This document shows positions 3,077 through 26,461 of a stretch of 64,000 nt of DNA, one piece after another (the stretch's first letter is position 1; every line of letters starts with the position of its first letter). Both the position numbers and the translations under genes were made by a program. The DNA lies in the NCBI GenBank assembly GCA_046484665.1, contig JAWOIN010000069.1, positions 7,114 to 71,113 of the forward strand. The letters are read 5' to 3'. The DNA is from Gemmatimonadota bacterium. Its GTDB lineage: Bacteria; Gemmatimonadota; Gemmatimonadetes; Palauibacterales; Palauibacteraceae. The notes under the pieces are model-generated. The model had not been told where the DNA came from and made no database searches. It worked only from the letters and a program-made list of their open reading frames with translations.

Positions 3077-3150
3077 GCCCGGGTCCGGCCCGGGCCGGCC
3101 CGGTCCCGGCGCGTTGACCTCGCGATGACGGCCGCGCCCCGCGACGGGGC

Positions 3151-4151
3151 GTGGTTGACCCGAACTCGTTCCGCCGTTCCGCCGCCCCGCGCGACGAAAC
3201 CCGCGCACTCGACGCGATGCGGAGGGAGATCCGCGCCCGGCAGATGAGCCTGCTGACCGAGGAGGCCTACGTCTCCTGGGCGCGGCGCTACCTCCGCTTT
3301 CACGACGGCCGCGATCCGCGCGAACTCGGCGGCGAGGGAATCGCCGCCTTCCTCACCCACCTCGCCGTTCGCCGAAACGTCGCGCCGTCCACCCAGAGCC
3401 ATGCCTCGAGCGCCCTGCTCTTCCTGTATCGCGAGGTGCTCGGGACCGAGGTGAACCCACCGAAGGGCGTGGTGCGCCCGATGGCGCCGCGCCGGCTTCC
3501 CGTCGTGCTCACCCCCTCGGAGGTCCGGGCCGTGCTCGGTCAGATCCGGGGGGCGCACCGGCTCGCCGCGACCCTCCTGCACGGGAGCGGGCTCCGCCTG
3601 CTCGAGTGTCTCCGGCTGCGCGTCAAGGACGTCGACTTCGAGCGCCGCGAGATCCTCGTGCGGGCCGGCAAAGGCGACCGGGACCGCGTCACCATGCTGC
3701 CCGACAGCGCCCGTACCGCGCTGGGTCGGCACCTGCGCCGCGTGCAAGAGCAGCACGAGCGCGATCTCGCCGCCGGCGCCGGATGGGTAGTCCTGCCCCG
3801 CGCGCTCACGCTCAAGTACCCGAACGCCGGCCGCGAGTGGGCCTGGCAGTGGGTGTTTCCCGCCACACGGATCCACGCGGGGTCGGCTACCGGGCGGCGC
3901 TTCCGATACCACCTCCACGAGTCCGCCGTCCAGCGCGCCGTCAAGGAGGCCGTGCAGCGGAGCGCGTCCCGAAGAGGGCCACATGCCACACCTTCCGGCA
4001 CTCCTTCGCCACCCACCTGCTCGAGAGCGGCTACGACATCCGGACCGTCCAGGAGCTGCTCCGGCACCGTAGCGTCCGCACCACGATGGTCTACACCCAC
4101 GTCCTGAACCGCGGCGGCCTCGGTGTCCGCAGTCCCGCCGACGCGTTCTGA
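3151..4151 (+). pseudogene. intI: integron integrase IntI (tyrosine recombinase), interrupted by apparent 1-nt frameshift near 3961-3970
   Basis: Frame 1 ORF 3151..4107 carries [32 protein letters not shown] and the IntI-specific insert [21 protein letters not shown]; frame 0 ORF 3606..4151 carries [36 protein letters not shown]. The junction reads ..AVQRSASRR in one frame and ..[15 protein letters not shown] in the other. Confidence 0.85.
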
Positions 4152-4390
4152 CCGTCGGGCGGGAAGCCGATCCCCGCCCGCCCCCTCTCCCGCGTCCAGC
4201 CTCCTGCGACTTCTCATGCCCCTGCGGCGTCCCGAAGTGGCGCCCTGCGCGAACCGCGCCTAGATTTTTCCACGCGCCCCACATCACCGAATTGCGTGCG
4301 GTTCGGCACATCGCCCGCACCGCTCGCAAGTCAACATCCCGGCCCGGGCTCCGTGCATCAGCCGCGTACCGTGCGGGAGGGGGCTGGGGT

Positions 4391-4416
4391 GTTGGGATGT
4401 CTGCTAGGAGTTAGAT
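4391..4416 (+). other. candidate attI / first cassette junction (GTTAGAT at 4410-4416, GTTGGGA at 4391-4397) in lower-GC spacer downstream of intI
   Basis: GTTRRRY-type box in the only lower-GC stretch between intI stop and first cassette ORF; position inferred, not proven. Confidence 0.3.
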
Positions 4417-4444
4417 GGCTATCAAACTCTGGGGCTAGACGGGA

Positions 4445-4822
4445 ATGAAGCGGAATATGGACTTGATCAGAGAGCTGCTTCTCTACTTCGAGGAGAAACC
4501 AGACGCCGCAGCCGTTGAGCCCTCTGAAATCTCGATTCCTGGTCCCGATTCCGACGATATCGCCTATCACATAGTCCTCTTGTCGGAAGCCGGCCTCCTC
4601 AGTCATGAGCGAGTCGAAAGCACGACGACGCCGAGCCGTCTCATCAAGTCGATACCATTCCGGCTTACTTGGGAAGGGCACGAGTTCCTCGATTCCGCTC
4701 GAAACCAGTCCACCTGGGAGCGTGCGAAGACCACCCTTGCCGCCAAGGGACTTGCCACTAGCTACGAACTCCTTAAGGCCCTCCTACTCAGCTACGGCAA
4801 ACAGCAGCTCGGTCTCAGCTAG
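4445..4822 (+). CDS. DUF2513-like hypothetical protein (cassette 1)
   Basis: ORF track; N-terminal MDLIRELLLYFEE pattern recalled from DUF2513 family; followed directly by attC. Confidence 0.5.
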   Translation: MKRNMDLIRELLLYFEEKPDAAAVEPSEISIPGPDSDDIAYHIVLLSEAGLLSHERVESTTTPSRLIKSIPFRLTWEGHEFLDSARNQSTWERAKTTLAAKGLATSYELLKALLLSYGKQQLGLS

Positions 4823-4833
4823 TGCGACACGCC

Positions 4834-4919
4834 ATCTAACACACGCCTGGAGCTGACGCGGAGGTGACTGTGGGCGGACGAATGATCGTGTCGCGCAGCT
4901 CAGGCGCTCACCGTCAGGT
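4834..4919 (+). repeat. attC site 1 (R'' ATCTAAC 4834-4840 ... R' GTCAGGT 4913-4919)
   Basis: Shares inner core GCCTGGAGCTGACGCG ... CGCGCAGCTCAGGCG with other attCs; imperfect inverted repeat with bulged bases. Confidence 0.7.
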
Positions 4920-4936
4920 CTGCGGGTAGGGGAGGA

Positions 4937-5260
4937 CTACTTGGCCGGGACCTCGCGGGACCGTTTGCGACGAGGCCGTACGACGTCGAGCACCGCATCC
5001 GGGTGTCGCGCTGCTACCCGCAGCAGCACGCGCGCCGGCCCCCGGGGGGTGCGCCGGCCCTGCTCCCAGTTCTGGAGCGTGCGTACGCTGATTCCGAGCA
5101 ACGAGGCGAACTTCTCTTGCGACAGCCCGTACGCCTCCCGAATCGCGGTCACGTCCTTCTCCGGAAGCTCGAAGGTCCGGACTGCCGCCTCCTTCTCTTT
5201 CAGGATCCGGCCGCCCTGGAGCACACTGGCCTCGAGCTCCGCGAACAGGTCCTTCTTCAC
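4937..5260 (-). CDS. higA: HigA-2-like antitoxin, XRE-family HTH (GTG start)
   Basis: ..AIREAYGLSQEKFASLLGISVRTLQNWEQGRRTPRGPARVLL.. HTH; starts 1 nt after overlapping toxin stop; real start GTG at 5260, not the 230-aa track ORF. Confidence 0.8.
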   Translation of the reverse strand: MKKDLFAELEASVLQGGRILKEKEAAVRTFELPEKDVTAIREAYGLSQEKFASLLGISVRTLQNWEQGRRTPRGPARVLLRVAARHPDAVLDVVRPRRKRSREVPAK

Positions 5261-5574
5261 CTGTATTCCTCCTCGACGATCCGGTGCAGGACCTTCTTCT
5301 GCTCCGGGCTCAGATCGCTGCGCTCGTTCTTGACGAAGACCATGAGCATGAGGATCGTCTCGTGAGACCCGGCCCAGTAGTAAATGACGCGTACGCCGCC
5401 GCGCTTGCCCCTGCCCGGGGTACGCCAGCGGATCTTCCGCAGGCCGCCCGCACCCGGAATCAGGCTTCCGGCCTCCGGGTCGGCGGCGAGACGTAGTTGC
5501 AGAAGCCGGTAGCTCTCCGGGTCCAGCAGCTCCTGGACGCGTCGGGAGAAGACCTCCGTCTCCTGAATCAGCAC
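5257..5574 (-). CDS. higB: HigB-2-like toxin (RelE/ParE superfamily, Gp49-like)
   Basis: GAGGLRKIRWRTPGRGKRGGVRVIYYW...ILMLMVFVKNERSDLSPEQKKVL matches HigB-2 signature GTGGLRKIR..GKGKRGG.R.IYY; toxin-first operon order. Confidence 0.85.
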   Translation of the reverse strand: MLIQETEVFSRRVQELLDPESYRLLQLRLAADPEAGSLIPGAGGLRKIRWRTPGRGKRGGVRVIYYWAGSHETILMLMVFVKNERSDLSPEQKKVLHRIVEEEYR

Positions 5575-5582
5575 CCGATAGC

Positions 5583-5599
5583 ATACGCCATTGGCGTAT
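5583..5599. promoter_or_regulatory. perfect 8-1-8 palindrome ATACGCCA-T-TGGCGTAT immediately upstream of higB start; candidate operator
   Basis: Seen directly in sequence; located 9 nt upstream of the GTG start of higB on the minus strand. Confidence 0.4.
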
Positions 5600-5620
5600 T
5601 CCCGACAAGGAGTGTTCGAG

Positions 5621-5709
5621 ACCTAACACTCGCCTGGAGCTGACGCGATGGGTTCAACGTGCAGACAACAGACAATCCAGGCGCGCAGCTCAGGCGTTCA
5701 CCGTTAGGC
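5621..5709 (+). repeat. attC site 2 (R'' ACCTAAC ... inner repeats GCCTGGAGCTGACGCG / CGCGCAGCTCAGGC ... R' GTTAGGC 5703-5709)
   Basis: R''/R' complementary 6/7; inner repeats complementary with two unpaired bases (extrahelical-base pattern). Confidence 0.8.
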
Positions 5710-5739
5710 GGCAACGTGGACGACACACGTGGAGACGCG

Positions 5740-6141
5740 ATGAGAATAGCCCTGGCACTCTTGGCTACGCTGTTGATCATGTACGTGGTCACCTTCGTGA
5801 TCTACGGCGTCGTAGCCGCCGTAACAGGTCTGGAACCGCCGCAGGATGGCTCGCCAGCGCGGTTCCTTCTCGGTGTCCTGATTACCAAGCTCGGCCTGGC
5901 CCTGGGGTTCGTGTTGTTGTTCGCCCTGGCGCGTGAAGTGTGGCAAGCCCGCTGGCCGGTCTATGCTCTCATCTGGTGGGTTCTCTTCGCTGTTTCGGAA
6001 ATCGGGCAGGCCGTCGCGCCGGGGTACTCGTGGCTTGAGGCCGCGGGCGGGATCATGGCCGAGGCGGTCTACTGCCCCCTTTCCGCGTGGGCGACGGCGC
6101 GCCTGCTGGGTGGCCGCGGCGCGGGACGGGTTGCCGCCTAA
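5740..6141 (+). CDS. small polytopic membrane protein, unknown function (cassette 3)
   Basis: ATG 5740 in frame of ORF 5659..6141; three hydrophobic helices; TAA stop lies inside R'' GCCTAAC of next attC. Confidence 0.5.
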   Translation: MRIALALLATLLIMYVVTFVIYGVVAAVTGLEPPQDGSPARFLLGVLITKLGLALGFVLLFALAREVWQARWPVYALIWWVLFAVSEIGQAVAPGYSWLEAAGGIMAEAVYCPLSAWATARLLGGRGAGRVAA

Positions 6142-6249
6142 CTAGCGCATGCAGCCGACATCCGGCTCAGTCACTCGCGCTGCATTCGGCCTGACGGCCG
6201 GCAGCGCTCGCGCCATCGCCGGCTGCGGCTGATGCGCGATTCGTTAGGC
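6136..6249 (+). repeat. attC site 3, different sequence family (R'' GCCTAAC 6136-6142 ... R' GTTAGGC 6243-6249)
   Basis: Perfectly complementary R''/R'; inner repeats GCGCATGCAGCCG / CGGCTGATGCGC complementary with one bulged base. Confidence 0.75.
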
Positions 6250-6306
6250 GGGCCGCGGTGATACTCCGTATACTCTAGGGAGGCATCCATTCATCGGAGA
6301 AACCGC

Positions 6307-6522
6307 GTGAAGAACGAGTTTACGGCGATCATTGAGCAGGACGGAGACTGGTACATCGCCTACTGCCCCGGGATCCCGGGCGCGAATGGGCAGGGACATA
6401 CACGAGATGAGGCGAGGCGAGTCTCGCCGAAGCTATTGCGCTCATTCTCGATGATCGCCGGGAAGACGGCCTGCGAGGGCTTCCTGCGGACGCCGAGCAG
6501 GATACCGTCACGGTCGATTGAA
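6307..6522 (+). pseudogene. hicB: HicB-family antitoxin, frameshifted near 6412-6425
   Basis: MKNEFTAIIEQDGDWYIAYCPGIPGANGQGHTRDEARR in one frame; ESLAEAIALILDDRREDGLRGLPADAEQDTVTVD in another frame ending TGA ~6520-6522. Confidence 0.7.
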
Positions 6523-6709
6523 GCGTAGCGCGCTTCTTCGTCACCGGCGCCGCCATGGCTGCTATCTCAAGCGGGAAGGTAGCTCTCACTCCCTTCGGAT
6601 CAATCCTCAGACGGGCGAAGTGCAGGCGATTCCCAGGCGCGCTGAGATTCCCGATCGCTTGGCACACCGAATCTGCTGCGGCCTCTCAGTACCAGAGCTC
6701 GGCAGGTGA
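6518..6709 (+). CDS. hicA: HicA-family toxin (YcfA-like), TTG start
   Basis: MKRSALLRHRRRHGCYLKREGSSHSLRINPQTGEVQAIPRRAEIPDRLAHRICCGL matches HicA HGC.L.REG.HS..NP.TG...PRH.EIP..LA..IC pattern. Confidence 0.75.
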   Translation: MKRSALLRHRRRHGCYLKREGSSHSLRINPQTGEVQAIPRRAEIPDRLAHRICCGLSVPELGR

Positions 6710-6718
6710 CTCGCAACC

Positions 6719-6807
6719 GCCTGACACGCGCCTGGAGCTGACGCGATGGGTTCAAAGTGCACACGCCAGCCAATCTGGGTGCGCAGCCCAGGCACTGACC
6801 GTTGGGC
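6719..6807 (+). repeat. attC site 4 (R'' variant GCCTGAC ... R' GTTGGGC 6801-6807)
   Basis: Same inner core as attC 1/2; begins 10 nt after hicA stop. Confidence 0.7.
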
Positions 6808-6822
6808 GGACGAAGCTCTGAA

Positions 6823-7569
6823 ATGACCATTCTCCTCCTGTTCACCTTGTATGCGATCGCCCTGTCAGCCGCGCTGGCACTGACAGGACACCGATCGCAG
6901 ACCTCTCCCTCGGGGGCGGCACCTCGCCACCCTCCCAGGCGGCTGCTGGTTGTGGGAGCGACCGGCGGTACTGGTCGTCAGCTTCTCGTGCAAGCGCTGG
7001 AGCGAGGTTACGAGGTCACGGCATTCGTCCGAGATCCTTCACGGCTTTCGATCGCTCATCGTCGACTGACCGTCGTGCGGGGTGATGTGCTCGACTTCGA
7101 TTCCGTAGACACTGCGATGCGCGGACAAGATGCGGTGCTGTCGGCTCTTGGCCACAAGCGGTTCTTCTACCCGACTCGCATCCTCTCGGAGGGCACTCGC
7201 AATATCCTGCGGGCCATGGAGAGCAAAGGCGTCCGGCACCTGGTGTGCGAGACCGCTATGGGAATCGGAGACAGTGCCGGGCGAATGGGCCTGTACTACA
7301 CGCTCTTCGTCATTCCGGTGATTCTGCCGTTCTACTTCTGGGACAAGACCCGGCAGGAACGGGTGATCGCGGGGAGTAATCTGGAATGGGTGATCGTGCG
7401 ACCCGGGATGCTGACCAACGGCGCCAGGCGGAGTTCGTATCGTCATGGTCGTCGCATCGGCAGCTTCCTCCGGACCGTGCGGATCTCCCGTGCCGACGTG
7501 GCGGACTTCATGCTCAACCAGCTGGAGTCCGACACGTACGCCCGTACTGCAGTGGGCGTGTGTTGGTAG
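6823..7569 (+). CDS. NAD(P)H-binding NmrA/SDR-like protein
   Basis: LLVVGATGGTGRQLLVQALERGYEVTAFVRDPSRL Rossmann GxxGxxG motif; ATG 6823 in frame of ORF 6802..7569. Confidence 0.7.
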   Translation: MTILLLFTLYAIALSAALALTGHRSQTSPSGAAPRHPPRRLLVVGATGGTGRQLLVQALERGYEVTAFVRDPSRLSIAHRRLTVVRGDVLDFDSVDTAMRGQDAVLSALGHKRFFYPTRILSEGTRNILRAMESKGVRHLVCETAMGIGDSAGRMGLYYTLFVIPVILPFYFWDKTRQERVIAGSNLEWVIVRPGMLTNGARRSSYRHGRRIGSFLRTVRISRADVADFMLNQLESDTYARTAVGVCW

Positions 7570-7677
7570 AGCAGCCGGTATCTCGCCGCCGCCCGACAAG
7601 CCGCCGCAGCCGCCGAGCGGCGCGGCTTCGCCCGGCTGATTCCAGATGACCGTGAGCGCCGCTCGCGTCCGAGCGGC

Positions 7678-8223
7678 ATGGCGTCAGGCATCGCCGTTCA
7701 TCAGCGGAACTGGCGAAGAATGAGTCTGGAGGCCGACCAGCGCTCGTTGCTCTCCCGGTATCTGCAGGGGCCGGCGTTGCTCGAGCAGGCGGTTGCTGAC
7801 TTGAGCGACGCCGACCTCGATGCTCCTCCATCGGACGGCGGCTGGACCATTCGGCAGATCGTTCACCACGTCGTTGATGGGGATGATCTCTGGATGACGT
7901 GCATCAAGGCTGCACTCGGGAACGAGGAAGACGACTTCACTTTGGAGTGGTACTGGCAGCTACCGCAGGACACTTGGGCCGAGCGCTGGGGCTATGCACA
8001 CAGACCACTCGACGTTTCCCTGGCTCTGTTCGGGGCGATCCGAGCTCACATCGCCCAACTGGTGGAACGAGCACCTGACGGATGGAGTCGATCGATGCGT
8101 GTCCGGACGCCGCAAGGAACCGAGCGCGTGTCGGTCCGCGCTGTGCTCGAGATGCAGGCTGATCACGTATCGCATCACGTCGAGAGGATTGCCGCCATTC
8201 GCGCGGAGCGTGGTGACGCCTGA
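7678..8223 (+). CDS. DinB/YfiT-like (DinB_2) metal-dependent hydrolase-fold protein
   Basis: HHVVDGDDLW ... HxxxH-type motifs; TGA stop overlaps R'' of following attC. Confidence 0.65.
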   Translation: MASGIAVHQRNWRRMSLEADQRSLLSRYLQGPALLEQAVADLSDADLDAPPSDGGWTIRQIVHHVVDGDDLWMTCIKAALGNEEDDFTLEWYWQLPQDTWAERWGYAHRPLDVSLALFGAIRAHIAQLVERAPDGWSRSMRVRTPQGTERVSVRAVLEMQADHVSHHVERIAAIRAERGDA

Positions 8224-8306
8224 CACGCGCCTGGAGTTGACCCGGTAAACATCGCGGCGAGGAAGCGGAACATCTGGTCGCCCAGCTCAGGCGCTCGCCG
8301 TGGACG
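8218..8306 (+). repeat. attC site 5 (R'' GCCTGAC 8218-8224 ... degenerate R' GTGGACG 8300-8306)
   Basis: Core CGCCTGGAGTTGACCCGG ... CCCAGCTCAGGCGCTCGCCG related to other attCs. Confidence 0.6.
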
Positions 8307-8328
8307 TGCAGGCGGTCCCGTGTCTAGT

Positions 8329-8347
8329 GTATATTGGCGTCATATAC
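8329..8347. promoter_or_regulatory. AT-rich inverted repeat GTATAT-N7-ATATAC upstream of brnT; candidate promoter/operator
   Basis: Seen in sequence between attC 5 and brnT ATG (8355). Confidence 0.3.
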
Positions 8348-8354
8348 TCCTGCC

Positions 8355-8660
8355 ATGAACGGGTCCTCGGAGCAGCTGGAGGCGTGTACCGGCTTCGAAT
8401 GGGACGTCGGCAACGTCGACAGGAACCGGGAGAGTCACGGGGTCTCGAATGCCGAGTGCGAGCAGGTCTTCTTCCAGCGCCCGCTCCTCATCGCCCCTGA
8501 TCTCGAGCATTCCCACGAGGAGCCTCGCTTCGCTGCCCTCGGGCGCATGGCCGATGGCCGGCGACTCACGATCGTGTTCACGATCCGCGGCACGTTGATC
8601 CGCGTGATCTCGTCACGGCTGATGAGCCGCCGCGAGCGGAGGGTCTATGAGCAAGCGTAA
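8355..8660 (+). CDS. brnT: BrnT-family toxin (DUF497)
   Basis: FEWDVGNVDRNRESHGVSNAECEQVF...RLTIVFTIRGTLIRVISSR matches BrnT F.WD..N...HGI pattern; overlaps brnA start. Confidence 0.8.
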   Translation: MNGSSEQLEACTGFEWDVGNVDRNRESHGVSNAECEQVFFQRPLLIAPDLEHSHEEPRFAALGRMADGRRLTIVFTIRGTLIRVISSRLMSRRERRVYEQA

Positions 8661-8967
8661 GAAGCAGCCCAGAGTGCGTGAGCCCGTCCCGGAGTTCCGC
8701 TCCGAGGAAGAGGAGCGGGAGTTCTGGGCCGAGCACGACGTGGTCAACTACTTCGACTGGGAGAACTCCGTTCCGGGCTCGTTCCCCGCTCTCAAGCCCT
8801 CGACCCAGACGATCTCGCTCCGGCTGCCCAAGGCGCTCCTGGAGGACCTCAAGGCGCTCGCCAACGAACGCGATGTCCCCTACCAGAGCCTCCTCAAGGT
8901 CTACCTCGCCGAGCGCGTAGCCCGGGAGCGCGACCGCCGACGCCGACGCACCGAGGCTGACGTCTAA
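8647..8967 (+). CDS. brnA: BrnA-family antitoxin (CopG-like)
   Basis: EEEEREFWAEHDVVNYFDWEN...ISLRLPKALLEDLKALANERDVPYQSLLKVYLAERV; TAA stop overlaps R''. Confidence 0.75.
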   Translation: MSKRKKQPRVREPVPEFRSEEEEREFWAEHDVVNYFDWENSVPGSFPALKPSTQTISLRLPKALLEDLKALANERDVPYQSLLKVYLAERVARERDRRRRRTEADV

Positions 8968-9048
8968 TCCGCGCCTGGAGCTGACACGGAGGGTGACGGT
9001 GGACAGACATGCTCGGTCGTCGCGCAGCCCGGGCGCTCACCGTTAGGC
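8962..9048 (+). repeat. attC site 6 (R'' GTCTAAT ... R' GTTAGGC 9042-9048)
   Basis: Core CGCCTGGAGCTGACACGG ... CGCGCAGCCCGGGCGCTCACC. Confidence 0.75.
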
Positions 9049-9088
9049 GGTACTGAAAGGTTCCCGCGGAAACGAGGGGCTAGCAACC

Positions 9089-9436
9089 TTGGCTCGCGAC
9101 CCAGTTGACGTGGCTCAGGCACAGTTGGATGCGTACAACGCAGGCGACCTTGAGGCATTTCTCGAGTGCTACGCCGAGGAAGCGCAGATCGAGGACGGCG
9201 ACGGGAACGTCCTCATGGGTGATCGCGAGGCGATGCGCTTCTTCTATGAGACGCTCTTCAGCCAGAGTCCGGATCTGCACTGTGAACTCCGGTCTCGGAT
9301 CGACGTCGGCCGCTTCGTTGTGGACGAGGAGTACGTGACCGGAGCGCACCTGGAGGGTCTCCCAACCGAGATCCACGCGGCCGTGGTCTATCGCATCGAA
9401 GACGGGTTCATCCGGCACGTCCGCTTCCTAGTGTAG
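9089..9436 (+). CDS. NTF2-like (SnoaL/ketosteroid isomerase-like) small protein, TTG start
   Basis: ORF track; LDAYNAGDLEAFLECYAEEA..VVYRIEDGFIRHVRFLV pattern typical of NTF2-fold family. Confidence 0.55.
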   Translation: MARDPVDVAQAQLDAYNAGDLEAFLECYAEEAQIEDGDGNVLMGDREAMRFFYETLFSQSPDLHCELRSRIDVGRFVVDEEYVTGAHLEGLPTEIHAAVVYRIEDGFIRHVRFLV

Positions 9437-9443
9437 GTGTACC

Positions 9444-9573
9444 GCCTAGCACGCGCCTGGAGCTGACGGCGCGCGTGCCTGGCACGAGAGGGGTTGACTG
9501 ACTTGGTTCAGATCACTGGCGCGGCGCGCTGCCGGGGCGGCGAATGCCGCAGCTCAGGCGCTCGCCGTTATGC
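9444..9573 (+). repeat. attC site 7, long form (R'' GCCTAGC 9444-9450 ... R' GTTATGC 9567-9573)
   Basis: Core ACGCGCCTGGAGCTGACGGCGCGC ... CGCAGCTCAGGCGCTCGCC; ~130 bp. Confidence 0.65.
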
Positions 9574-9878
9574 CGACTCCCCGCATGGATAAGGACGAAG
9601 CCAGGGCAATACTCGCCGAGTGCCTCGCTTCGTACCGGGCTATGACCTATCCAGAGCTCGCGTTGCGAGTCGACACCGTCGAGACCGCTGAGATCCGGGC
9701 TCCGTCCGGAGTGCAGTATCAGCTTGAAGTCCAGTTCTTCTGGGATTCCAAGCCGAATCACGAGGTCAGAGTTATCGGTTCGGTCGACGACGGGGGTTGG
9801 CGGGCTTTTGTTCCCCTGTCCGACGACTTCATCCTGGCGCCGGATGGCACCTTCGTAGGCGAGCAGCCAGCAGATTGA
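9570..9878 (+). CDS. hypothetical protein (cassette 8), ATG created inside R' box GTTATGC
   Basis: ORF track; no recognisable motif; coding GC3 bias. Confidence 0.45.
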   Translation: MPTPRMDKDEARAILAECLASYRAMTYPELALRVDTVETAEIRAPSGVQYQLEVQFFWDSKPNHEVRVIGSVDDGGWRAFVPLSDDFILAPDGTFVGEQPAD

Positions 9879-9879
9879 C

Positions 9880-9967
9880 AAGCGCTGGCAGCTGACGCGG
9901 ACTGCAGTTGTGGCGTCAGACGCGCCGGCGATCGTGGCTGCGCAGCGGAAGCGCAAGACCGTCAGTC
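9880..9967 (+). repeat. attC site 8, degenerate (GCTGGCAGCTGACGCGG ... GCTGCGCAGCGG ... R' GTCAGTC 9961-9967)
   Basis: Retains GCAGCTGACGCGG / CGCAGCGG halves of the family core; R'' not clear. Confidence 0.4.
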
Positions 9968-9980
9968 GGCTTGAGCGGAC

Positions 9981-10769
9981 ATGATGGACGCGGGAACCTG
10001 CGATCGGTGGTATCAGACGCCGCGCGGCCGGTGGATCGGGCAACGCGAGGTAGCGTTGCTCCTTGGAGAGCTGCAACTTCATCCGGGCGAATCGCTGCTC
10101 GATGTAGCGTGTGGCACCGGCTTCTTCACGCGTGCTCTTGCGTCCGCGATGGGAGCGCCGGTCACCGGCGTCGATATCAGCCCAGAATGCGTGGCGTATG
10201 CGCGTCGTCGAGACACGGACAAGGTGTCCTACGAGGTCGCCGACGCACGTGCCCTGCCTTACGGAGCCGCGAGCTTCGACGTCGTCGTGTCGATCGCGGC
10301 ACTGTGCTTAATCGAAGAGGAACGCGCCGCTGTCCGCGAGATGTGTCGCGTCGCGCGCCGCCGGGTAGCCATCGGTCTACTGAATCGCCGGAGCCTCCTT
10401 TGGCTCCGGAAGGGTAGGAACGGTGGCCGCGGAGGCTACCGCGGTGCTCGCTGGCACACGACCGGCGAGGCCGCGGACCTGCTCAAGGGTCTGCCGGTGC
10501 AGCTTTCTCGGGTGCGGACCGCCATACACCTTCCGGGTGACGGGCGAATCGCGCGGGTCATGGAGCGCCTATGGCCGCCGTGGCTCCACACCGGCGCGTT
10601 CATGCTCGTGGTGGCAGACGTTGCTGCGGTTACCGATGCGCCACCTGACAGCAGCGTGCAGCGGACGGCGCTTCGCGCTGTCGCTGATGCTGAGCGTCAG
10701 GCGGCGTACCTTGAAATGGTACGAGTCCGTATTCGAACCGCGACGACGCTGCCACCCGGGTCAGTGTGA
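9981..10769 (+). CDS. class I SAM-dependent methyltransferase
   Basis: [16 protein letters not shown]...VTGVDIS...FDVVVS motifs I-III. Confidence 0.75.
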
Positions 10770-10779
10770 GGAGGCGTCA

Positions 10780-11271
10780 ATGAGTCCGAAGAAGGCCACG
10801 CAGAAATCCGGCGAGAGCACCACCGCGATCAACAGGAAGTCCAAGGGATTCACGGACGAGGAACGAGCTGCAATGAAGGAGCGCGCCCAGGAGCTGAAGG
10901 CGGAAGCAAGCGGCGGCGCGCGCGCGAGCAAGAACAGGGCGGACGGCGAAAGAGACGTGCTCGCGAAGATCGCCGAGATGCGGGAACCGGATCGCGCCAT
11001 GGCCAAGCGGTTTCATGCTGTCATCCTGGCCAGCGCGCCGACGCTCTCGCCGAACACCTGGTACGGGATGCCCGCGTACGCCAAGGGCGGCAAGGTCGTC
11101 TGCTTCTTCCAAAGCGCGCAGAAGTTCAAATCGAGGTATGCGACGTTCGGCTTCAGTGACGAGGCGAATCTCGACGAAGGCGCCATGTGGCCGACCTCTT
11201 TCGCACTGAAGGACTTGACCGCCGCCGAAGAGGCGAGGATCGGCGCTCTCGTGAGGAGAGCGGTGAGCTGA
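10780..11271 (+). CDS. DUF1801 (YdhG-like) domain protein
   Basis: [32 protein letters not shown] typical DUF1801 core; ATG 10780 preceded by GAGGAGG. Confidence 0.7.
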
Positions 11272-11542
11272 GGAGCGATCTCGGCATCGGGCCCCGACCA
11301 GGGGCCTTCGGTAGCTCCGACAGACCCGGCGATATCATTCTCACTGCTGAAAACGAGGATTCGGCATGGGCACGCCAGCCCATGCAATCGGTCGAGTAGC
11401 GTGAGGCAATCGGGAGAGCCGGCGTCACGGCACCGCCCGAAGTGGCGATGGCCGACCAGGTCCATCCGGTTCCGGCCTCACGGGTCCACGCTTTGGTCTG
11501 GCTTTGGCGGGAGCAGCGAGCGCCACCAGGGCAGTGAGCGCC

Positions 11543-11609
11543 GCCTGACCGGCGACTTCACCTGCCGACGGCCGCCCGGCAACCGCAGCTCCTTCGAGCA
11601 CAGGTGAGC
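11543..11609 (+). repeat. degenerate attC remnant (R''-like GCCTGAC ... CAGCTCCTTCGAGCACAGGTGAGCGG)
   Basis: Resembles 5' and 3' halves of array attCs (compare CAGCTCAGGCGCTCACCGTTAGGCGG). Confidence 0.3.
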
Positions 11610-11656
11610 GGCCCCGCTCGAAAGCCCCATTGCATCAGATGGGAGGACGCGCAGCG

Positions 11657-12169
11657 ATGGATTCGTCGGCACTCGAGTTCCTGCTTCGGTTCAATATCTG
11701 GGCGAACCGGCGTTTGTTGGATGCTATCGAGAGCCTGTCGGGAAACGCGGATCTGACTCCGATCCGAGACATGGTCGCGCACATTGTCGCGGCAGAGTGG
11801 ATCTGGATGGAACGGCTGGAGGGCGTCAGCCCGGGCGAAGTTCCGGCCTGGGTCGACGCAGAGGGACTGGAGCCCCTCCGGGAGCGGTTGGCGGTGGTCG
11901 AGACACGCAGAGCTGCCTTTCTGGAGACTCTGGATGAGAGCGGGACAAGGCGTGTGGTGGAGTTTCGGCTCCTCAACGGCAGTAGCGGAACGGCGGAAGT
12001 CTGGCAGCTGATGGTCCACGTCATCAATCACTCCACATATCATCGTGGGCAGCTGGCGAGACTGTTGCGCGAGGCCGGGGTGACCCCACCCACCACAGAC
12101 CTGATCTCCTTCTGTCCGGAGGGAGGCCAGTATCGGAGTCGAGAGTCGCGACGATCGGACTGCGAATGA
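11657..12169 (+). CDS. DinB-family protein (DinB_2)
   Basis: FNIWANRRLLDAIESL ... HVINHSTYHRGQLARLLREAG characteristic DinB C-terminus. Confidence 0.7.
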   Translation: MDSSALEFLLRFNIWANRRLLDAIESLSGNADLTPIRDMVAHIVAAEWIWMERLEGVSPGEVPAWVDAEGLEPLRERLAVVETRRAAFLETLDESGTRRVVEFRLLNGSSGTAEVWQLMVHVINHSTYHRGQLARLLREAGVTPPTTDLISFCPEGGQYRSRESRRSDCE

Positions 12170-12395
12170 TCGTCGTCCTGAATGGACCGCCTCGCATCGG
12201 AGAGGGGACGCTCGCAGAAGCGCTCGCCGAAAACATCGAGAAGTGCGCCACCTGCCGGGGGTCTGCGGCAGCAGAGCAGGAGTCGCGGGTCCGGAGCCGT
12301 TCGCCTTGCAGCCCGCCGCTCCGGGCAGGCATCATGCTCACGCAGCGGAACGGCATAGTCGGCAGATACGCGACAGCAGGGGAGGTCACTGCCGA

Positions 12396-12746
12396 ATGAA
12401 GAGCTACCTCCTTGTGCTGAACGAGGGCCCCTACGGAAACGAGCGTTCGTACAACGCGCTGCGTTTCGCCGCCGCGCTCCGCAAGCAGCCCGACGCGCTC
12501 GTGCGCGTCTTCCTGCTCGGCGAGGCCGCGTTCTGCGCCCTGAAGAACCAGGAAACGCCCCAAGGAATCTACAATATCGGACGGATGCTCCGGATCCTGA
12601 CGACTCACGGCGCCGTGGCCACGTGAGGCTCCTGCGCCAAGGCCCGCGGGATCGGGCCCGAGCAGCTCCTGGAGAAAGTGGAACTCGCGAGCATGGAGCA
12701 GCTGGCCGGCTGGGCTCACGAGAGCGATCAGGTTCTCGTGTTCTGA
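12396..12746 (+). CDS. DsrE/DsrF/YchN-like protein with in-frame TGA (12624-12626); candidate selenoprotein or nonsense pseudogene
   Basis: MKSYLLVLNEGPYGNERSYNALRFAAAL..HGAVAT-TGA-GSCAKARGIGPEQLLEKVELASMEQLAGWAHESDQVLVF; family-conserved C-terminus continues in same frame after TGA; GGAGG 8 nt upstream of ATG. Confidence 0.6.
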
Positions 12747-12756
12747 TTTCACCACG

Positions 12757-13743
12757 ATGTCCGGCACGGGACGCGAGCTGGCGCTCACCGCTTCATGGAG
12801 CCCCGGGCCCTTCGCATCCGATGCCTTCCATCCGCCGTTGCCAGCATGCAGCGGATTCTCCGCGCTCCCGGTGTCCACGGGAGTCGAGATGGAGCTCGAC
12901 ATGACGGAGGATTGCAAGCGAGCATCGGATCTGGCAGGTCGCTCGCGCGGGGGCTGGAAGCTGGCCCTCGGCGAGCTCGCCATCGTATCGCTCGGCGTCC
13001 TGATCGCTCTCTGGGCCGACCAGGCGATCCAGGCCCGCCAGGAGGCCGCCAGGGAGGTCGGTTACCTCGAGCGCCTCCAGACGGATGTGCGCGCGGACAT
13101 CCGCTCCCTGCGATTCAGCGCCGACCAGGCGCGGAACCGGCTCGCGATCACTCGGCAGGTCGATGCCTGGCTCCACGACCCGGACGGAAGGCCCGATCCC
13201 GACTCACTGGTCTTGAGCGCGCACTTCGCAGGCGTCACGTTCCCGCCCACGATCTCGACGTTCACGATCGACGAGCTGAGGTCCACGGGTGACCTCGGCC
13301 TCCTGCGGAATCAGGCGCTCAAGAGACAGATCGCCGACTACTACAACCAGATCGGCCTGCAGATCGACCGGTGGATCGCCTGGGGTGACGAGGGGCTCAC
13401 CGAGACGTACTTCCGCGAGCTGGCGTTCATCGTGGACCCTGAGCTCAGGATTCGGGCGGGCACGTTCGACCCGGCGCTGATGCAGCGCTTCCTGAGCGCC
13501 TCCGGCGGAGACGCGCCGTCCAGATACGCCGAGATCCAGGGAGCCGCACCGGAGATCGGAGCCACGCTCGCCGACGCGGACCGGATCCTCGGTCGGATGC
13601 GGGCGCGTCCGAACTACGAGGGCTATCTCCGCGACAGCATGTACTGGGCGCATCTGTCGGCCCAGCTGCTGGACGGCGTCGTCCTCACCGCCGAGGAGCT
13701 GGAGGCGACGATCGCGGAGGAGCTCGAGGCTCTCGGCCGATAG
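12757..13743 (+). CDS. hypothetical membrane-anchored protein, unknown function (start uncertain, possibly 12888/12900)
   Basis: ORF track; one TM (LALGELAIVSLGVLIALWA) then soluble domain; strong GC3 bias. Confidence 0.45.
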   Translation: MSGTGRELALTASWSPGPFASDAFHPPLPACSGFSALPVSTGVEMELDMTEDCKRASDLAGRSRGGWKLALGELAIVSLGVLIALWADQAIQARQEAAREVGYLERLQTDVRADIRSLRFSADQARNRLAITRQVDAWLHDPDGRPDPDSLVLSAHFAGVTFPPTISTFTIDELRSTGDLGLLRNQALKRQIADYYNQIGLQIDRWIAWGDEGLTETYFRELAFIVDPELRIRAGTFDPALMQRFLSASGGDAPSRYAEIQGAAPEIGATLADADRILGRMRARPNYEGYLRDSMYWAHLSAQLLDGVVLTAEELEATIAEELEALGR

Positions 13744-19208: not shown

Positions 19209-19511
19209 ATGTCACATCCCGCGCTGATCCTGCTGGTGCGCGTCCGCTCCTCGCTCCCGCGGGAGGAGGTCCTGCGCGTGATGCGAGAGCGGATGCCGGA
19301 GTTCGCGGCGATCGAAGGCCTCCGGCAGAAGTACTACCTGGAGGATCCAGAGTCGGGCGACTTCGCGGGTCTCTACCTGTGGCGATCGCAGGGGGATCTC
19401 GCCGAGTACAGCGCCTCGGAGCTGCGAGAGAGCATCGCGGAGGCGTACGGCGTGGAGGGAGAGCCGCGCATCGAGGTGTTCCGCGTGGTCGAGGCCCTGC
19501 GAGACGCGTAG
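19209..19511 (+). CDS. small hypothetical protein (possible ABM/YdhR-like alpha-beta barrel)
   Basis: ORF track; weak fold guess only. Confidence 0.35.
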   Translation: MSHPALILLVRVRSSLPREEVLRVMRERMPEFAAIEGLRQKYYLEDPESGDFAGLYLWRSQGDLAEYSASELRESIAEAYGVEGEPRIEVFRVVEALRDA

Positions 19512-19620
19512 CGGTCCGGGCCGCGTGACGGTCCGCTTTGCCGTGCTTCCCTGGGTCGCCAGATTGGACGAGTCAGACCGTCGCGGCCCTCCAGCCGCTC
19601 CCCCTGCCCTGGAGACTCCG

Positions 19621-21618
19621 ATGTCGCTCCGCGCCCGCCGGTCCCTGGTCGTGGCCGTCTGCCTGCTCGCCCCCGTCGCCTGCGACCGTGCCGACGCTCC
19701 CCCCGGGACCGAAGCCGGCTCGGCGCCCGAGCGCCTGGCCGCCGACACTCCCATGGAGACCGTCGAGGGCGCGACCTTCCTCGCGCCCGACGACTGGACC
19801 GTGTCGGTGCGCGGCCCCGCCACGATCCTCGAAGCGCCGGAGGGCGACTCGCGGATCGCGCTCGTCGACGTGCGGGCCCCGGAGGCCGACTCGGCCGTGG
19901 CGCTCGCCTGGGCGGCCTACATGCCCGATCGCCCGTGGCCGCTGAAGGTCTCCACGCCCTCGCCCGACCGGGACGGGTGGACCGACGGACGCAGCTACTC
20001 GTACCAGACCTCGCCCGACGAGAAGCGGGGCGTGGCCGCGTTCGCGCAGCGCGCCGGCGACGTGTGGACGGTCGCGATCTACGACATGAGCGACGCGACG
20101 GGCGGCAAGCGGGCCTCCGCGGTGGCCCTCGTCTTCGACCGGCTGTATCCCGAGGGGTACACGCCGGAGTCGTTCGCCGGGAGGGCGGCCGCGTCCCTCG
20201 ACGACGCGCGGCTCGCGGAGCTCTCCGCGTTCACCGAGACGGCGATGAAGGAGCTCGGCGTCCCGGGCGTCGCCGTCGGGATCGTCCAGGACGGGAGGAT
20301 CGCCTTCGCCGACGGGTTCGGCGTCCGCGAGCTCGGCAGGCTGGAGAAGCCGGACGCGAACACCCTGTTCATGGTCGCCTCGAACACGAAGGCGCTCACC
20401 ACGCTGATGCTGGCCAAGCTCGTCGAGGCGGGGAAGTTCGGGTGGGAGACGCCCGTCACCTCGCTCCTGCCGTCCTTCGCGCTCGGCGACCCGGAGATAA
20501 CCCGGCAGGTGCTCGTGAGGCACCTGATCTGCGCCTGCACCGGGCTCCCGCGGCAGGACCTCGAGTGGCTGTTCGAGTTCGAGGACGCCGACGCCGCGAC
20601 CTCGCTCGCGACCCTCGCCACGATGCAACCCACGAGCGAGTTCGGGGAGATGTTCCAGTACTCGAATCCGATGGCCGCGGCGGCCGGGTACGCGGGCGGA
20701 CACGTGGCCTACCCCGATCTGGAGCTGGGCGCCGCGTACGACGAGGCGATGCGGTCGCTCGTGTTCGAGCCGCTCGGGATGACGTCGACGACGTTCGACT
20801 ACGGGAAGGCGCTCTCAGGGAACCACGCCTCCCCGCACGCGCCGGACATAGATGGCACGCCGGCGGTCGCGGCGATGGAGATCAACTACTCCGTGATCCC
20901 CGTTCGCCCGGCCGGCGCGGCGTGGAGCAACGTCCGCGACATACTGAAGTACGTCGCGATGGAGCTCGCCGAGGGCAAGCTCCCGGACGGTACGGAGTAC
21001 ATCGACCGGGAGACGCTCCTGACCCGGCGCGCGCCGCAGGTCCCGATAGGGAAGGACGCCACGTACGGCATGGGCCTCATGGTGGACACGAAGTACGGGA
21101 CGCCCGTCGTGCACCACGGCGGCGACATGATCGGGTTCCACAGCGACATGATGTGGCTGCCGGAACACGGCGTGGGCGCCGTAATCCTCACGAACGGAGA
21201 CCCGGGCTGGACCCTCCGGGATTCCTTTCGGCGGAAGCTCCTCGAGGTCCTGTTCGAAGGTCGGGACGAGGCCGGCGGCGACGTCGCCTCACAGGCCGGG
21301 AGCTTCTACGCCCGGCTCGCGGCCGAGCGGGCGCTCCTCACGGTCCCTGCTGACCCCGACGCGTCGGCGAAGCTCGCGGAGCACTACGAGAACGAAGCCC
21401 TCGGCGAAATCGAGGTGATTCGGGACGGCGGCCGGACCCTGTTCGACTTCGGCGAGTTCTCGAGCGAGGTCGCATCGCGGGTGAATCCGGATGGCTCGGT
21501 CTCGCTCCTCACGATCGACCCCGGCATCGACGGCTTCGAGTTCGTCGTGGGCGACGGTGCGGAGAAGACGCTCACCATCCGCGATGCGCAGCACGAGTAC
21601 GTGTTCAGCGGGTCGTGA
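19621..21618 (+). CDS. serine hydrolase, beta-lactamase/transpeptidase-fold family with C-terminal extension (secreted)
   Basis: Signal peptide; SxxK motif MVASNTKALT; ~660 aa. Confidence 0.75.
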   Translation: MSLRARRSLVVAVCLLAPVACDRADAPPGTEAGSAPERLAADTPMETVEGATFLAPDDWTVSVRGPATILEAPEGDSRIALVDVRAPEADSAVALAWAAYMPDRPWPLKVSTPSPDRDGWTDGRSYSYQTSPDEKRGVAAFAQRAGDVWTVAIYDMSDATGGKRASAVALVFDRLYPEGYTPESFAGRAAASLDDARLAELSAFTETAMKELGVPGVAVGIVQDGRIAFADGFGVRELGRLEKPDANTLFMVASNTKALTTLMLAKLVEAGKFGWETPVTSLLPSFALGDPEITRQVLVRHLICACTGLPRQDLEWLFEFEDADAATSLATLATMQPTSEFGEMFQYSNPMAAAAGYAGGHVAYPDLELGAAYDEAMRSLVFEPLGMTSTTFDYGKALSGNHASPHAPDIDGTPAVAAMEINYSVIPVRPAGAAWSNVRDILKYVAMELAEGKLPDGTEYIDRETLLTRRAPQVPIGKDATYGMGLMVDTKYGTPVVHHGGDMIGFHSDMMWLPEHGVGAVILTNGDPGWTLRDSFRRKLLEVLFEGRDEAGGDVASQAGSFYARLAAERALLTVPADPDASAKLAEHYENEALGEIEVIRDGGRTLFDFGEFSSEVASRVNPDGSVSLLTIDPGIDGFEFVVGDGAEKTLTIRDAQHEYVFSGS

Positions 21619-24314: not shown

Positions 24315-25532
24315 CTACCGGAACAGCGGGAACACCCGGTCGAGAAGGTCGTCCCGAAGCGACGCGAGGATCGCGCCCGCGTCCGGCCGGTCCCGGTCCG
24401 TGCCGCGATCCGTGTTGAGGACCGCGATCGCGGCCGCGCCCGTCGCCGGATCGACGTAGAAGAACGACTGGAACGCCCGCTGGTCGCCGCTGTGCCCGAC
24501 CACGCGCACCGGACCGCGCTCGAGCAGGAAGAACACGAGGCCGATCGCCTCGCGGGTCCCGGCTGCCGGCACCGGTGTCGCCGCGTCCGTCGCGGACGGG
24601 ACCTCGAGCTGCTCCCGCCACATCTCCTCGAGCGACTGGCGCCGGAGCACGACCTCGTACTCCTCCCGCACGGCGGGATCGCCCGCGAGGAACGCAAGGT
24701 ACCTCGCCATGTCGGGGATCGGAGCGTTGAGCCCGCTGTTCGACGCCGTGATTCCGGTGTCGAAGTCGAGCCCGTGCGCGATCCGCTCGCCGTCGCGCAC
24801 GGTGTAGCTGTTCGAGCGGTACGGCAGCAGGTGGACCGGCGTCACGTCGAAGTAGCTGCGGTGCATGCCGAGCGGCTTCAGGATGTTCTTGTCGACGTAG
24901 ACCTCGTAGTCGTCGCCGGTGAGCCGCTCGATGATCCGGCCCAGGAAGATGATGCCGGGATTCGAGTAGGCGTGGCGGCTGCCGGGCTCGAACAGGATCT
25001 CGGTATACGGCAGCATCGCCACGATCTGTGACCAGTTCGTGGGCTCGAACGGCTGCCAGGCCTCGCTCCCGCCCCACGGCCACGTGGCCGCGCGGAACCC
25101 TGCCGAGTGCGCCATCAGGTGCCGGATCGTGACCCCGTCCATCGGGCCGTACGGGTTATGCACGACGCGCAGCTCGGGCAGGTACCTCACCACGGGGTCG
25201 TCCAGCGACAGCAGGCCGCGGTCGCGCAGCTGCATGATTGCGATGCCCGTGAACGTCTTCGTGATCGACGCCCAGTGGAAGATCGTGTTCTCTTCCACGC
25301 GCCGGTCCGCCTCGAGATCCGCGAAGCCGTACAGCTCAGTCGCGAGCGTCTCGTCCCGGAGGAAGAACCACAGGGAGCCGCCCGCCACCCCCTGCTCATC
25401 GAGCGTGCGGTGATAGCGATCGGCGACCTCGTGCCAGGCCGCATCGAAGACGCCCGGCTCCTGGGCATCCGCGGCCTTCGGGACACAGAACGCCAGCGCC
25501 GTTGCCATGGTCACCACGATCCGGGATGCGAC
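24315..25532 (-). CDS. serine hydrolase, beta-lactamase family (class C-like); start uncertain
   Basis: SxxK motif HWASITKTF, YSN motif AYSNPG; N-terminal signal-like segment. Confidence 0.7.
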   Translation of the reverse strand, partial: VASRIVVTMATALAFCVPKAADAQEPGVFDAAWHEVADRYHRTLDEQGVAGGSLWFFLRDETLATELYGFADLEADRRVEENTIFHWASITKTFTGIAIMQLRDRGLLSLDDPVVRYLPELRVVHNPYGPMDGVTIRHLMAHSAGFRAATWPWGGSEAWQPFEPTNWSQIVAMLPYTEILFEPGSRHAYSNPGIIFLGRIIERLTGDDYEVYVDKNILKPLGMHRSYFDVTPVHLLPYRSNSYTVRDGERIAHGLDFDTGITASNSGLNAPIPDMARYLAFLAGDPAVREEYEVVLRRQSLEEMWREQLEVPSATDAATPVPAAGTREAIGLVFFLLERGPVRVVGHSGDQRAFQSFFYVDPATGAAAIAVLNTDRGTDRDRPDAGAILASLRDDLLDRVFPLFR

Positions 25533-25882
25533 GGGACGGCGGCGTTCCTGACGGCAGGGGCTCGGGCGGTCGGTCAAGCGATCCTCCCCGGTCGTGTCGC
25601 CTTCCGGGGCGACGCACGGTCTCAGATCACGCGGACAATTCCATGATACCCGCGACATCGGGTGCCGCGCACGTCTGGTCACGGAGATCCTCGTCCCGAG
25701 CCCACCCGTCTGCGTCGAGGTGCGGGTCCCGACGCAGTCGCCGGGGCGAGGGACCCCGCCCGTGCCCCGACCTGTTATCGTGAGAGTCCGGACGAGAACG
25801 GAATCGCGGGCGTCGATCCGACGCACACGGGGGACGGACTGCCGGGCGACTCGACCGGCGGTCCGGAAAGGAGAGGCTGCAC

Positions 25883-26461
25883 ATGAGCGAGCCCACGATG
25901 GCCACCGAAGGTCACGACGGATCGGGGGGCGGGGAGACGGGACACGGAAGCTACCTGAGGTTCTTCGTGATGATCGCGACGGCGATGATCGCGATGTACC
26001 TGCTGACGTACGTCAACTCCTACCGGATTCTCGACCACGCTCGGTTCAGCGAGACGCGCCTGTTCATGACGCTCGTCATGGGCGCTTCGATGATGGCGAT
26101 CATGCTCGTCTTCATGCTCAAGATGTACCGGAACCGCACGCGCAACGCCGCGATCTTCGTCGGCGCGGGCCTCCTGCTGGCGGTCGGGATCTGGCTCGTG
26201 CGCAGCCAGGCCACGGTGGGCGACGTGGACTACATGGAAGGCATGATCCCGCACCACTCGATCGCGATCCTGACCAGCGAGCGTGCCGGAATCGAGGATC
26301 CGCGCGTTCGCGAGCTCGCCGACGAGATCATCGAGGCGCAGCGCAGGGAGATCCGGGAGATGGACTGGCTGATCGCGGACATCCGGGCGAACGGAGTGGC
26401 CGGCAGCCGGGCGGAGGCAGACGCGAGACCGGTGCCGGACTTCTCCGGCGAGCCGGAATAG
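25883..26461 (+). CDS. DUF305 domain protein (metal-binding four-helix bundle family)
   Basis: MEGMIPHHSIAIL and EIIEAQRREIREMDWL motifs; N-terminal TM. Confidence 0.65.
   Translation: MSEPTMATEGHDGSGGGETGHGSYLRFFVMIATAMIAMYLLTYVNSYRILDHARFSETRLFMTLVMGASMMAIMLVFMLKMYRNRTRNAAIFVGAGLLLAVGIWLVRSQATVGDVDYMEGMIPHHSIAILTSERAGIEDPRVRELADEIIEAQRREIREMDWLIADIRANGVAGSRAEADARPVPDFSGEPE

Follow-up and report, generated by a model that had tools for sequence, protein, structure and literature searches.

Introduction

DsrE-like proteins were reported from the Sargasso Sea as a new selenoprotein family with Pfam02635, a UXXC motif and a predicted SECIS element (Zhang et al. 2005, PMC1088965). A DsrE-like selenoprotein was also found in Desulfovibrio vulgaris (Zhang et al. 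2006, PMC1794560), and a 2026 review lists the DsrE-like protein under PF02635 with the UxxC motif and the accession WP_014524487.1, its function being given as uncharacterised (PMC13188914). In this family, homologues have Cys in place of the single selenocysteine (Sec) of UxxC, and directly past the UGA lies a stem-loop whose apical loop contains G. The bacterial Sec pathway of Böck and colleagues is summarised in PMC1088965, where the features of the bacterial SECIS are also described. This element, as in E. coli fdhF, lies inside the coding sequence shortly past the UGA and has a short, GC-rich stem with a small, G-containing loop.

Other described systems are related to these proteins. 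E. coli YchN has a solved structure (PDB 1jx7), which its depositors named 'hypothetical protein YchN', and DsrE/TusD of the DsrEFH and TusBCD systems (2hy5) has the same fold. Moreover, DsrE, rhodanese and TusA homologues are described as sulfane-sulfur carriers of sqr-pdo clusters, with the CstA fusion of S. aureus and YrkE/YrkF/YrkI of B. licheniformis as examples (PMC9918477).

In the present study, a gene at positions 12396-12746 of a 64,000-nucleotide stretch of DNA from a Gemmatimonadota MAG (the whole stretch is referred to as the window) was compared with these systems. The preliminary description of this DNA had proposed the gene as a candidate selenoprotein of a family with reported Sec members. 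The latter point agrees with the three publications on DsrE-like selenoproteins (PMC1088965, PMC1794560, PMC13188914), and the proposal itself was supported by a TGA aligned with Cys, a hairpin specific to TGA-bearing genes, a C-terminus under selection and the published UxxC family. With a probability of roughly 0.92, judged from sequence comparison, 12396-12746 is a genuine selenoprotein gene in which the UGA of codon 77 would be decoded as Sec at the active-site position. Every defining feature of the DsrE-like selenoprotein family that can be tested on sequence was found in it. Thus described, the window gene joins a selenoprotein family known since 2005 and is no new kind of system. It differs from the published members in its Gemmatimonadota host; no statement on Sec use in Gemmatimonadota was found in the literature searched. 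As to the host, a DUF885 protein encoded in the window (35380-36984) was 100% identical to a database protein labelled as Gemmatimonadota, and the named matches ranking next, with 73-77% identity, were Gemmatimonadales/Gemmatimonadota. That it belongs to the same subfamily as the published DsrE-like selenoproteins is inferred from the shared Pfam family, the shared motif and a delta-proteobacterial Sec form that is 59% identical (locus L017).

Results and discussion

Gene and product

The coding sequence at 12396-12746 (+) consists of 116 codons and a terminal TGA stop (12744-12746), with an internal TGA that would be read through. A Shine-Dalgarno-like GGGAGG, whose function is presumed from its sequence, is located at 12380-12385 (+), 10 nt 5' of the ATG at 12396. 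The translation runs MKSYLL...HGAVAT, the internal TGA, GSCAKARGIGPEQLL...SDQVLVF and the terminal stop, and the full product would be MKSYLLVLNEGPYGNERSYNALRFAAALRKQPDALVRVFLLGEAAFCALKNQETPQGIYNIGRMLRILTTHGAVAT-U-GSCAKARGIGPEQLLEKVELASMEQLAGWAHESDQVLVF. The only internal TGA is codon 77 (12624-12626, +), the proposed Sec codon and first position of the UxxC motif; the TGC at 12633-12635 (+) encodes Cys80, the second residue of the motif, which reads U-G-S-C in this protein. When the product was given Cys at position 77, it matched Pfam DsrE (PF02635) with 87.5 bits against a cut-off of 22.7 (E 9e-25), and the alignment covered residues 2-116 and profile positions 1-116 of 116. Since the profile was matched end to end, the stretch 3' of the TGA is the normal C-terminus of the family. 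Moreover, the GC3 was 0.87 both 5' and 3' of the internal TGA. These results confirmed what had been described at the outset, namely, a single TGA at 12624-12626 within a DsrE-like ORF, a family-typical C-terminus in frame behind it and a strong GC3 bias beyond it. All other coordinates and features of that description, including the hairpin discussed below, were likewise correct.

An antisense ORF of 319 aa at 12024-12983 was also considered as the coding sequence of this region. Its GC content was flat over the codon positions (0.69/0.57/0.70), whereas the plus strand showed the Pfam match and the GC3 of 0.87. The antisense ORF is an artefact of the high GC content.

Among solved structures, E. 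coli YchN (1jx7) was the closest relative (E 6e-20); residues 2-116 of the query aligned with residues 2-117 of the chain. Both proteins have the same length, and they share the full-length alignment, the placement of C-x-x-C...RGI and a C-terminus of the form ...VLxF. In YchN, Cys is present where the window protein has the UGA: the TGA aligns with the first Cys of the C-K-T-C motif ('VKLCKTC'). It also aligns with the conserved 'VVC' Cys of the DsrE chain 2hy5_A. DsrE/TusD lacks the second Cys of UxxC/CxxC in the alignment, whereas the window protein has Cys80. Further differences from DsrE/TusD proper were found in the NCBIfam equivalog scores (TIGR03012, NF001237), which were 39.5 against a cut-off of 89.25 bits and 33.3 against 92, and in the gene neighbourhood, as no DsrF/H or TusB/C partner genes were detected near the window gene or in the gene tables of its relatives. 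The product also scored well under the NCBIfam cut-offs for TusC/DsrF and TusB/DsrH. Accordingly, it was classified as a YchN-type member and not as a sulfur-relay subunit.

Conservation of the internal TGA

Sequencing or assembly errors and pseudogenes, in which a TGC or TGG has turned into TGA, usually show up in a MAG contig as a lone in-frame stop. A collection of 5.8 billion proteins was searched for the closest proteins, and the four closest (P0001, P0002, P0006, and P0009) were 75-87% identical and each exactly 76 residues long. As all four have this length, the gene callers must have halted at the same codon. These 76-aa calls could also be taken as fragments of decayed genes, and the 76-aa product of the window gene itself was absent from the protein-collection matches, both of which would agree with an error or a pseudogene. 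When the contigs of the closest proteins were inspected (L001-L015), however, the codon was TGA every time and the C-terminus was conserved in frame. Beyond the TGA, the relatives read GSCA[KR]ARGIGPE[QE]LL...VLVF (VLAF in L005), followed by a terminal TGA. In the public gene calls, the C-terminal 39 codons of P0001, P0002, P0006, and P0009 are unannotated, and the JGI label of P0002 and P0009 is 'uncharacterized protein involved in oxidation of intracellular sulfur'.

One scan each of species-representative genomes and of metagenomes yielded 94 further loci, and the homologous column was placed by local tblastn in 108 loci. The codon was TGA in 66, TGC in 29 and TGT in 13, and no other codon occurred. 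Together with the Cys of YchN and DsrE, this answers whether the TGA column matches a conserved Cys of the homologues, which the preliminary description had left as a check. Among the best 80 metagenome loci, 44 had TGA, as had 7 of the 13 species-representative genome matches that span the site; in both cases the ranking favours relatives of the Sec-type query. The hosts of the TGA forms were MAGs labelled Anaerolineae, Chloroflexi, delta-proteobacterium, Halanaerobiaceae, and Clostridiales. In the scan of species-representative genomes, no near-identical genome was found, and the relatives were 43-57% identical only. One relative, in a Chloroflexota MAG (L029:2428-2600, DSAR01000317.1), matched residues 5-66 only, after which the frame is lost in stops and unrelated sequence, probably through a frameshift or degradation of this copy.

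The same TGA was kept in all 54 unique TGA-bearing sequences, which come from many independent assemblies, and C80 was invariant in the protein alignment (A2). Between the window gene and its four closest lineages, codons 1-76 gave dN/dS values (Nei-Gojobori) of 0.10-0.17, and codons 78-116 gave values of 0.08-0.24. Therefore, the part beyond the TGA is translated and under selection. No frameshift or further stop followed the TGA, and a hairpin co-occurs with it, as described in the next section. Judged from these comparisons, the conserved TGA and the selected C-terminus exclude that the TGA is a sequencing error or a private nonsense mutation, or that the gene is a decaying pseudogene; error or pseudogene as a whole is very improbable and effectively refuted.

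The same values bear on the possibility that the TGA is a true terminator, so that the gene would encode a 76-residue N-terminal fragment and the downstream 39 codons would be untranslated or separately translated. TGA does serve as a stop elsewhere in the genome (12744-12746), and Sec insertion is usually inefficient; some truncated product is thus expected in any case. However, purifying selection acts on codons 78-116 in the same frame, and no start codon preceded by a ribosome-binding site was seen from which a C-terminal peptide could be separately translated. Moreover, the fragment would be devoid of the active-site motif and the C-terminal strand of the family, which are included in the full-length PF02635 and YchN matches. 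Termination at codon 77 as the normal fate of this gene is thus highly unlikely, and read-through of the TGA is the preferred reading.

Hairpin downstream of the TGA

A SECIS-like hairpin was predicted by RNAfold at 12641-12658 (+), within codons 82-88 (KARGIGP). It begins 14 nt past the TGA and has a 6-bp stem and a 6-nt loop, composed of the 5' arm GGCCCG (12641-12646), the loop CGGGAU (12647-12652) and the 3' arm CGGGCC (12653-12658). The hairpin GGCCCG-CGGGAU-CGGGCC had been proposed earlier at this distance from the TGA, and its coordinates proved exact. The centroid and MFE folds additionally contained a possible lower stem at 12632-12665 (+), in which CUGC (12632-12635) would pair with GCAG (12662-12665). 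As relatives showed other registers here, the enclosing lower stem is weakly supported by the folding models. Like the SECIS of E. coli fdhF, the predicted hairpin lies inside the coding sequence shortly past the UGA and combines a short, GC-rich stem with a small loop containing G. It differs from it in having no Rfam SECIS match: no SECIS family was detected in the whole window at the gathering score, and a search of 12300-12850 with E up to 10 returned only chance-level hits to HCV_SLVII, mir-9209, s2m, and sR10. Because the element is short and lies inside a DsrE-like coding sequence, this null result was given little weight.

In the case of folding stability, the 67-nt stretch was no better than its dinucleotide shuffles (z +1.5; +1.1 in a second test). 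Since stability was not significant in this GC-rich sequence, it was dropped as evidence and comparative data were used instead. Of the 54 unique TGA forms, 52 had at least five of the six pairs in register, compared with none of the 41 unique Cys forms. The MFE of nucleotides 13-42 past the codon averaged -12.0 kcal/mol in the TGA forms and -5.4 kcal/mol in the Cys forms (Mann-Whitney p = 5e-15), and the RNAalifold consensus was the same 6-bp helix. When a 7-pair version of the helix was evaluated in the 54-sequence alignment, 87% of the cells were paired, compared with 44-51% when the 3' partner was slid by one column. Compensatory changes occurred at three pairs in 15 cells, with C-G replaced by U-A in 12 sequences at the fourth pair, and none of 500 shuffles reached the observed pairing or covariation score. 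This covariation is modest, as the three pairs and 15 cells possibly represent few independent events. In one subgroup, the stem was extended and a GGUC tetraloop was left.

The coding constraint on this region was also considered. The 5' arm (GCC CGC) and the loop G's (GGG) are codons of an Ala-Arg-Gly motif that is conserved in the Cys forms too, and the loop G's, being also fixed by the Gly codon of this motif, are not independent evidence by their conservation. The 3' arm is encoded by [ILV]-[GE]-P in the Sec forms, whereas the Cys forms have other residues (...GD, ...KP, ...KS). Because the conservation of the 5' arm and the loop cannot be separated from that of the ARG codons, the independent signal comes mainly from the 3' arm. 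On the comparative evidence as a whole, the hairpin goes beyond chance, and the comparative picture was regarded as decisive.

A second hairpin, resembling a terminator, was observed at 12717-12740 (+); it has nine pairs, is followed by TTCTGATTTC and coincides in part with the end of the selenoprotein gene (last codons and stop). In 2.5 kb, one terminator-like site was found, compared with 0.6 expected, and this hairpin may be a chance occurrence.

Decoding of the TGA

In the proposed mechanism, the hairpin within the coding sequence would be the recoding signal. SelB carrying Sec-tRNA(Sec) would, by analogy with the known pathway, bind the hairpin and deliver Sec when the UGA reaches the A site. 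Reading of codon 77 as Sec would then produce a U-G-S-C active-site motif in a YchN-type protein of 116 residues.

Genome-wide reassignment of UGA (genetic code 4 or 25) would equally allow translation through codon 77, and nothing beyond the in-frame TGA speaks for it. In the window gene and in all its close relatives, the terminal TGA falls exactly at the C-terminus of the family; thus, the recoding is local and the genetic code is unchanged. The window was also scanned for other in-frame TGA codons within coding-like sequence, and only four ordinary same-frame gene boundaries were found besides, with no other convincing case inside a coding region. The probability of a reassigned code is consequently negligible, and this reading is refuted.

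A recoding that depends on the hairpin could also insert a residue other than Sec, either Cys through a tRNA-Sec-like tRNA-Cys, as has been proposed for some bacteria, or Trp or Cys through near-cognate read-through. The sequence data are informative on the read-through of the UGA and on the accompanying hairpin, not on the identity of the residue, and the Sec machinery was not seen in the window: the 64 kb contain no tRNA or tmRNA, and no SelA, SelB or SelD domain was detected by Pfam in about 35 ORFs. On the other hand, bacterial selenoproteins are defined by exactly this combination, a UGA paired with Cys at a redox Cys position and, next to it, a stem-loop with G in its apical loop, and the DsrE-like family is already catalogued as a selenoprotein family. 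Moreover, decoding of UGA as Cys would have no obvious gain over TGC, yet the TGA is kept across the whole clade. Insertion of another residue was thus given only a slim chance, and Sec is the preferred assignment for codon 77. The TGA, the hairpin and the selected C-terminus are kept in four diverged lineages of the clade, which would be hard to explain if the hosts had no read-through machinery.

Gene neighbourhood and probable function

To place the product functionally, the neighbour genes were clustered across 109 loci. An SQR/FCSD-like flavoprotein (pyridine-nucleotide-disulfide oxidoreductase with an FCSD central domain) adjoined 43 loci, of which 23 were Sec-type and 20 Cys-type. Similarly, a fusion of rhodanese and metallo-beta-lactamase domains, the architecture of CstB-type persulfide dioxygenases (PDO), adjoined 41 loci (26 Sec-type, 15 Cys-type). 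Class V aminotransferases of the cysteine desulfurase type were present at 14 loci, and small 4Fe-4S ferredoxins at 12, of which 11 were Sec-type. Examples of these recurring neighbours are L050:41-1138, L055:1058-2464, L033:12-1754, and L034:2299-2661. Many Sec and Cys members of the family thus resemble the sqr-pdo carriers in adjoining SQR-like and rhodanese-persulfide-dioxygenase-type genes.

Sec77 aligns with Cys78 of DsrE, which is the persulfide-sulfur acceptor in DsrEFH/TusBCD. Because Sec77 occupies this position, a sulfane-sulfur carrier or reductase is the most likely function. The same proposal, a Sec-based sulfane-sulfur carrier or reductase, follows from the SQR and rhodanese-PDO neighbours when they are considered with the carriers described for sqr-pdo clusters (PMC9918477). 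Overall, homology and the family-wide neighbourhoods make a carrier or reductase of sulfane sulfur, possibly of selenium, the most likely role. Sec77 would take up sulfur as a selenenyl-sulfide or persulfide species, which Cys80 would resolve; homology and the neighbourhoods are again the basis for this step. No paper joining YchN, DsrE and persulfide was found in the literature search.

The window copy and its close relatives, in contrast to the sqr-pdo carriers, are not located beside SQR, PDO or rhodanese genes; their neighbours are DinB-family, methyltransferase and membrane-anchored genes instead. Therefore, the window gene itself is the member with the weakest functional assignment. Its neighbours are a methyltransferase (9981-10769) and a DinB-family protein (11630-12169), and this order (methyltransferase-DinB-DsrE) is in synteny with contig L001. 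Also located nearby are a weak DUF1801-like match and proteins with no assigned family. On the other side, a gene for a membrane-anchored protein of 328 aa with no Pfam match (12757-13743, +) starts 10 nt past the stop of the selenoprotein gene and is, at this distance, probably co-transcribed with it. The protein has one hydrophobic segment at about residues 64-93. It showed a weak similarity to the product of the gene downstream of Sec-DsrE in L006/L010 (26% over 140 aa, E 0.001), with the same N-terminal anchor.

As regards the wider setting, a tyrosine recombinase/integrase is encoded at 3118-4104 and is followed by about 8 kb of lower GC content (0.63-0.65, compared with 0.69-0.75 elsewhere). 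Within 3118-12200, the low-GC stretch contains a gene for a RelE-like toxin and a BrnT/CopG toxin-antitoxin pair (8334-8964) as well as two DinB-family genes; DUF2513, SnoaL-like and methyltransferase genes are also present. Synteny with L001 extends over part of this stretch, which looks like an accessory or variable region with the selenoprotein gene at its edge. Two large proteins of the serine beta-lactamase/transpeptidase family (PF00144) are encoded 7-13 kb downstream of the selenoprotein gene, at 19282-21615 (+) and 24318-26012 (-); L001 likewise has a PF00144 gene downstream of its Sec-DsrE gene.

Evolution of the Sec and Cys forms

A neighbour-joining tree was constructed from 97 unique proteins. 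As it was based on about 116 residues and included the SECIS-constrained positions, it was regarded as indicative only. In this tree, a large Sec clade of 53 sequences included the window gene and a single nested Cys form (L034), and two separate Sec lineages (L025 and L028) were found among the Cys forms; the minimum number of switches was four. The nested Cys form (L034:2291, TGC) has a partly decayed hairpin, GGCCCG-CGGGAT-CGACCC, with four of six pairs, and from its sequence it looks like a recent reversion from Sec to Cys. The two separate lineages are of Firmicutes type (L025:3235-3294, Halanaerobiaceae MAG; L028:3203-3262, Clostridiales MAG). Both carry hairpins, at roughly the same distance past the TGA, in another register and with 3-nt loops. 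This register and the placement of both lineages in the tree suggest independent origins of Sec in the family.

A broader reading of these data is possible, though we consider it somewhat less probable than its negation. YchN-type DsrE proteins may form one large, old Sec clade over several phyla (Chloroflexota/Anaerolineae, delta-proteobacteria, and Gemmatimonadota) that would be about as common as the Cys form in environmental DNA and almost entirely mis-annotated as 76-aa fragments. Its members would act as Sec-based sulfane-sulfur carriers that feed or relieve sulfide detoxification by SQR and persulfide dioxygenase.

Implications

The understanding of how selenoproteins work is unchanged by the window gene. 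Its consequences for annotation are more direct: when such genes are called as 76-aa proteins, protein catalogues miss the active site and the C-terminus. The present counts, despite the ranking bias toward the Sec-type query, suggest that protein-based surveys undercount the DsrE-like Sec family. The hairpin also illustrates how a selenoprotein may originate cheaply. One arm and the G-rich loop were already available in the conserved Ala-Arg-Gly codons, so that adaptation was needed only in the residues that follow 'ARG'.

As regards the host, the gene adds a Gemmatimonadota lineage to the likely users of Sec. The SQR and rhodanese-PDO genes that recur beside family members provide a hypothesis of function for the YchN group, which is uncharacterised. 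If the large multi-phylum Sec clade is true, Gemmatimonadota would be a Sec-decoding phylum, and the YchN family would gain a testable function.
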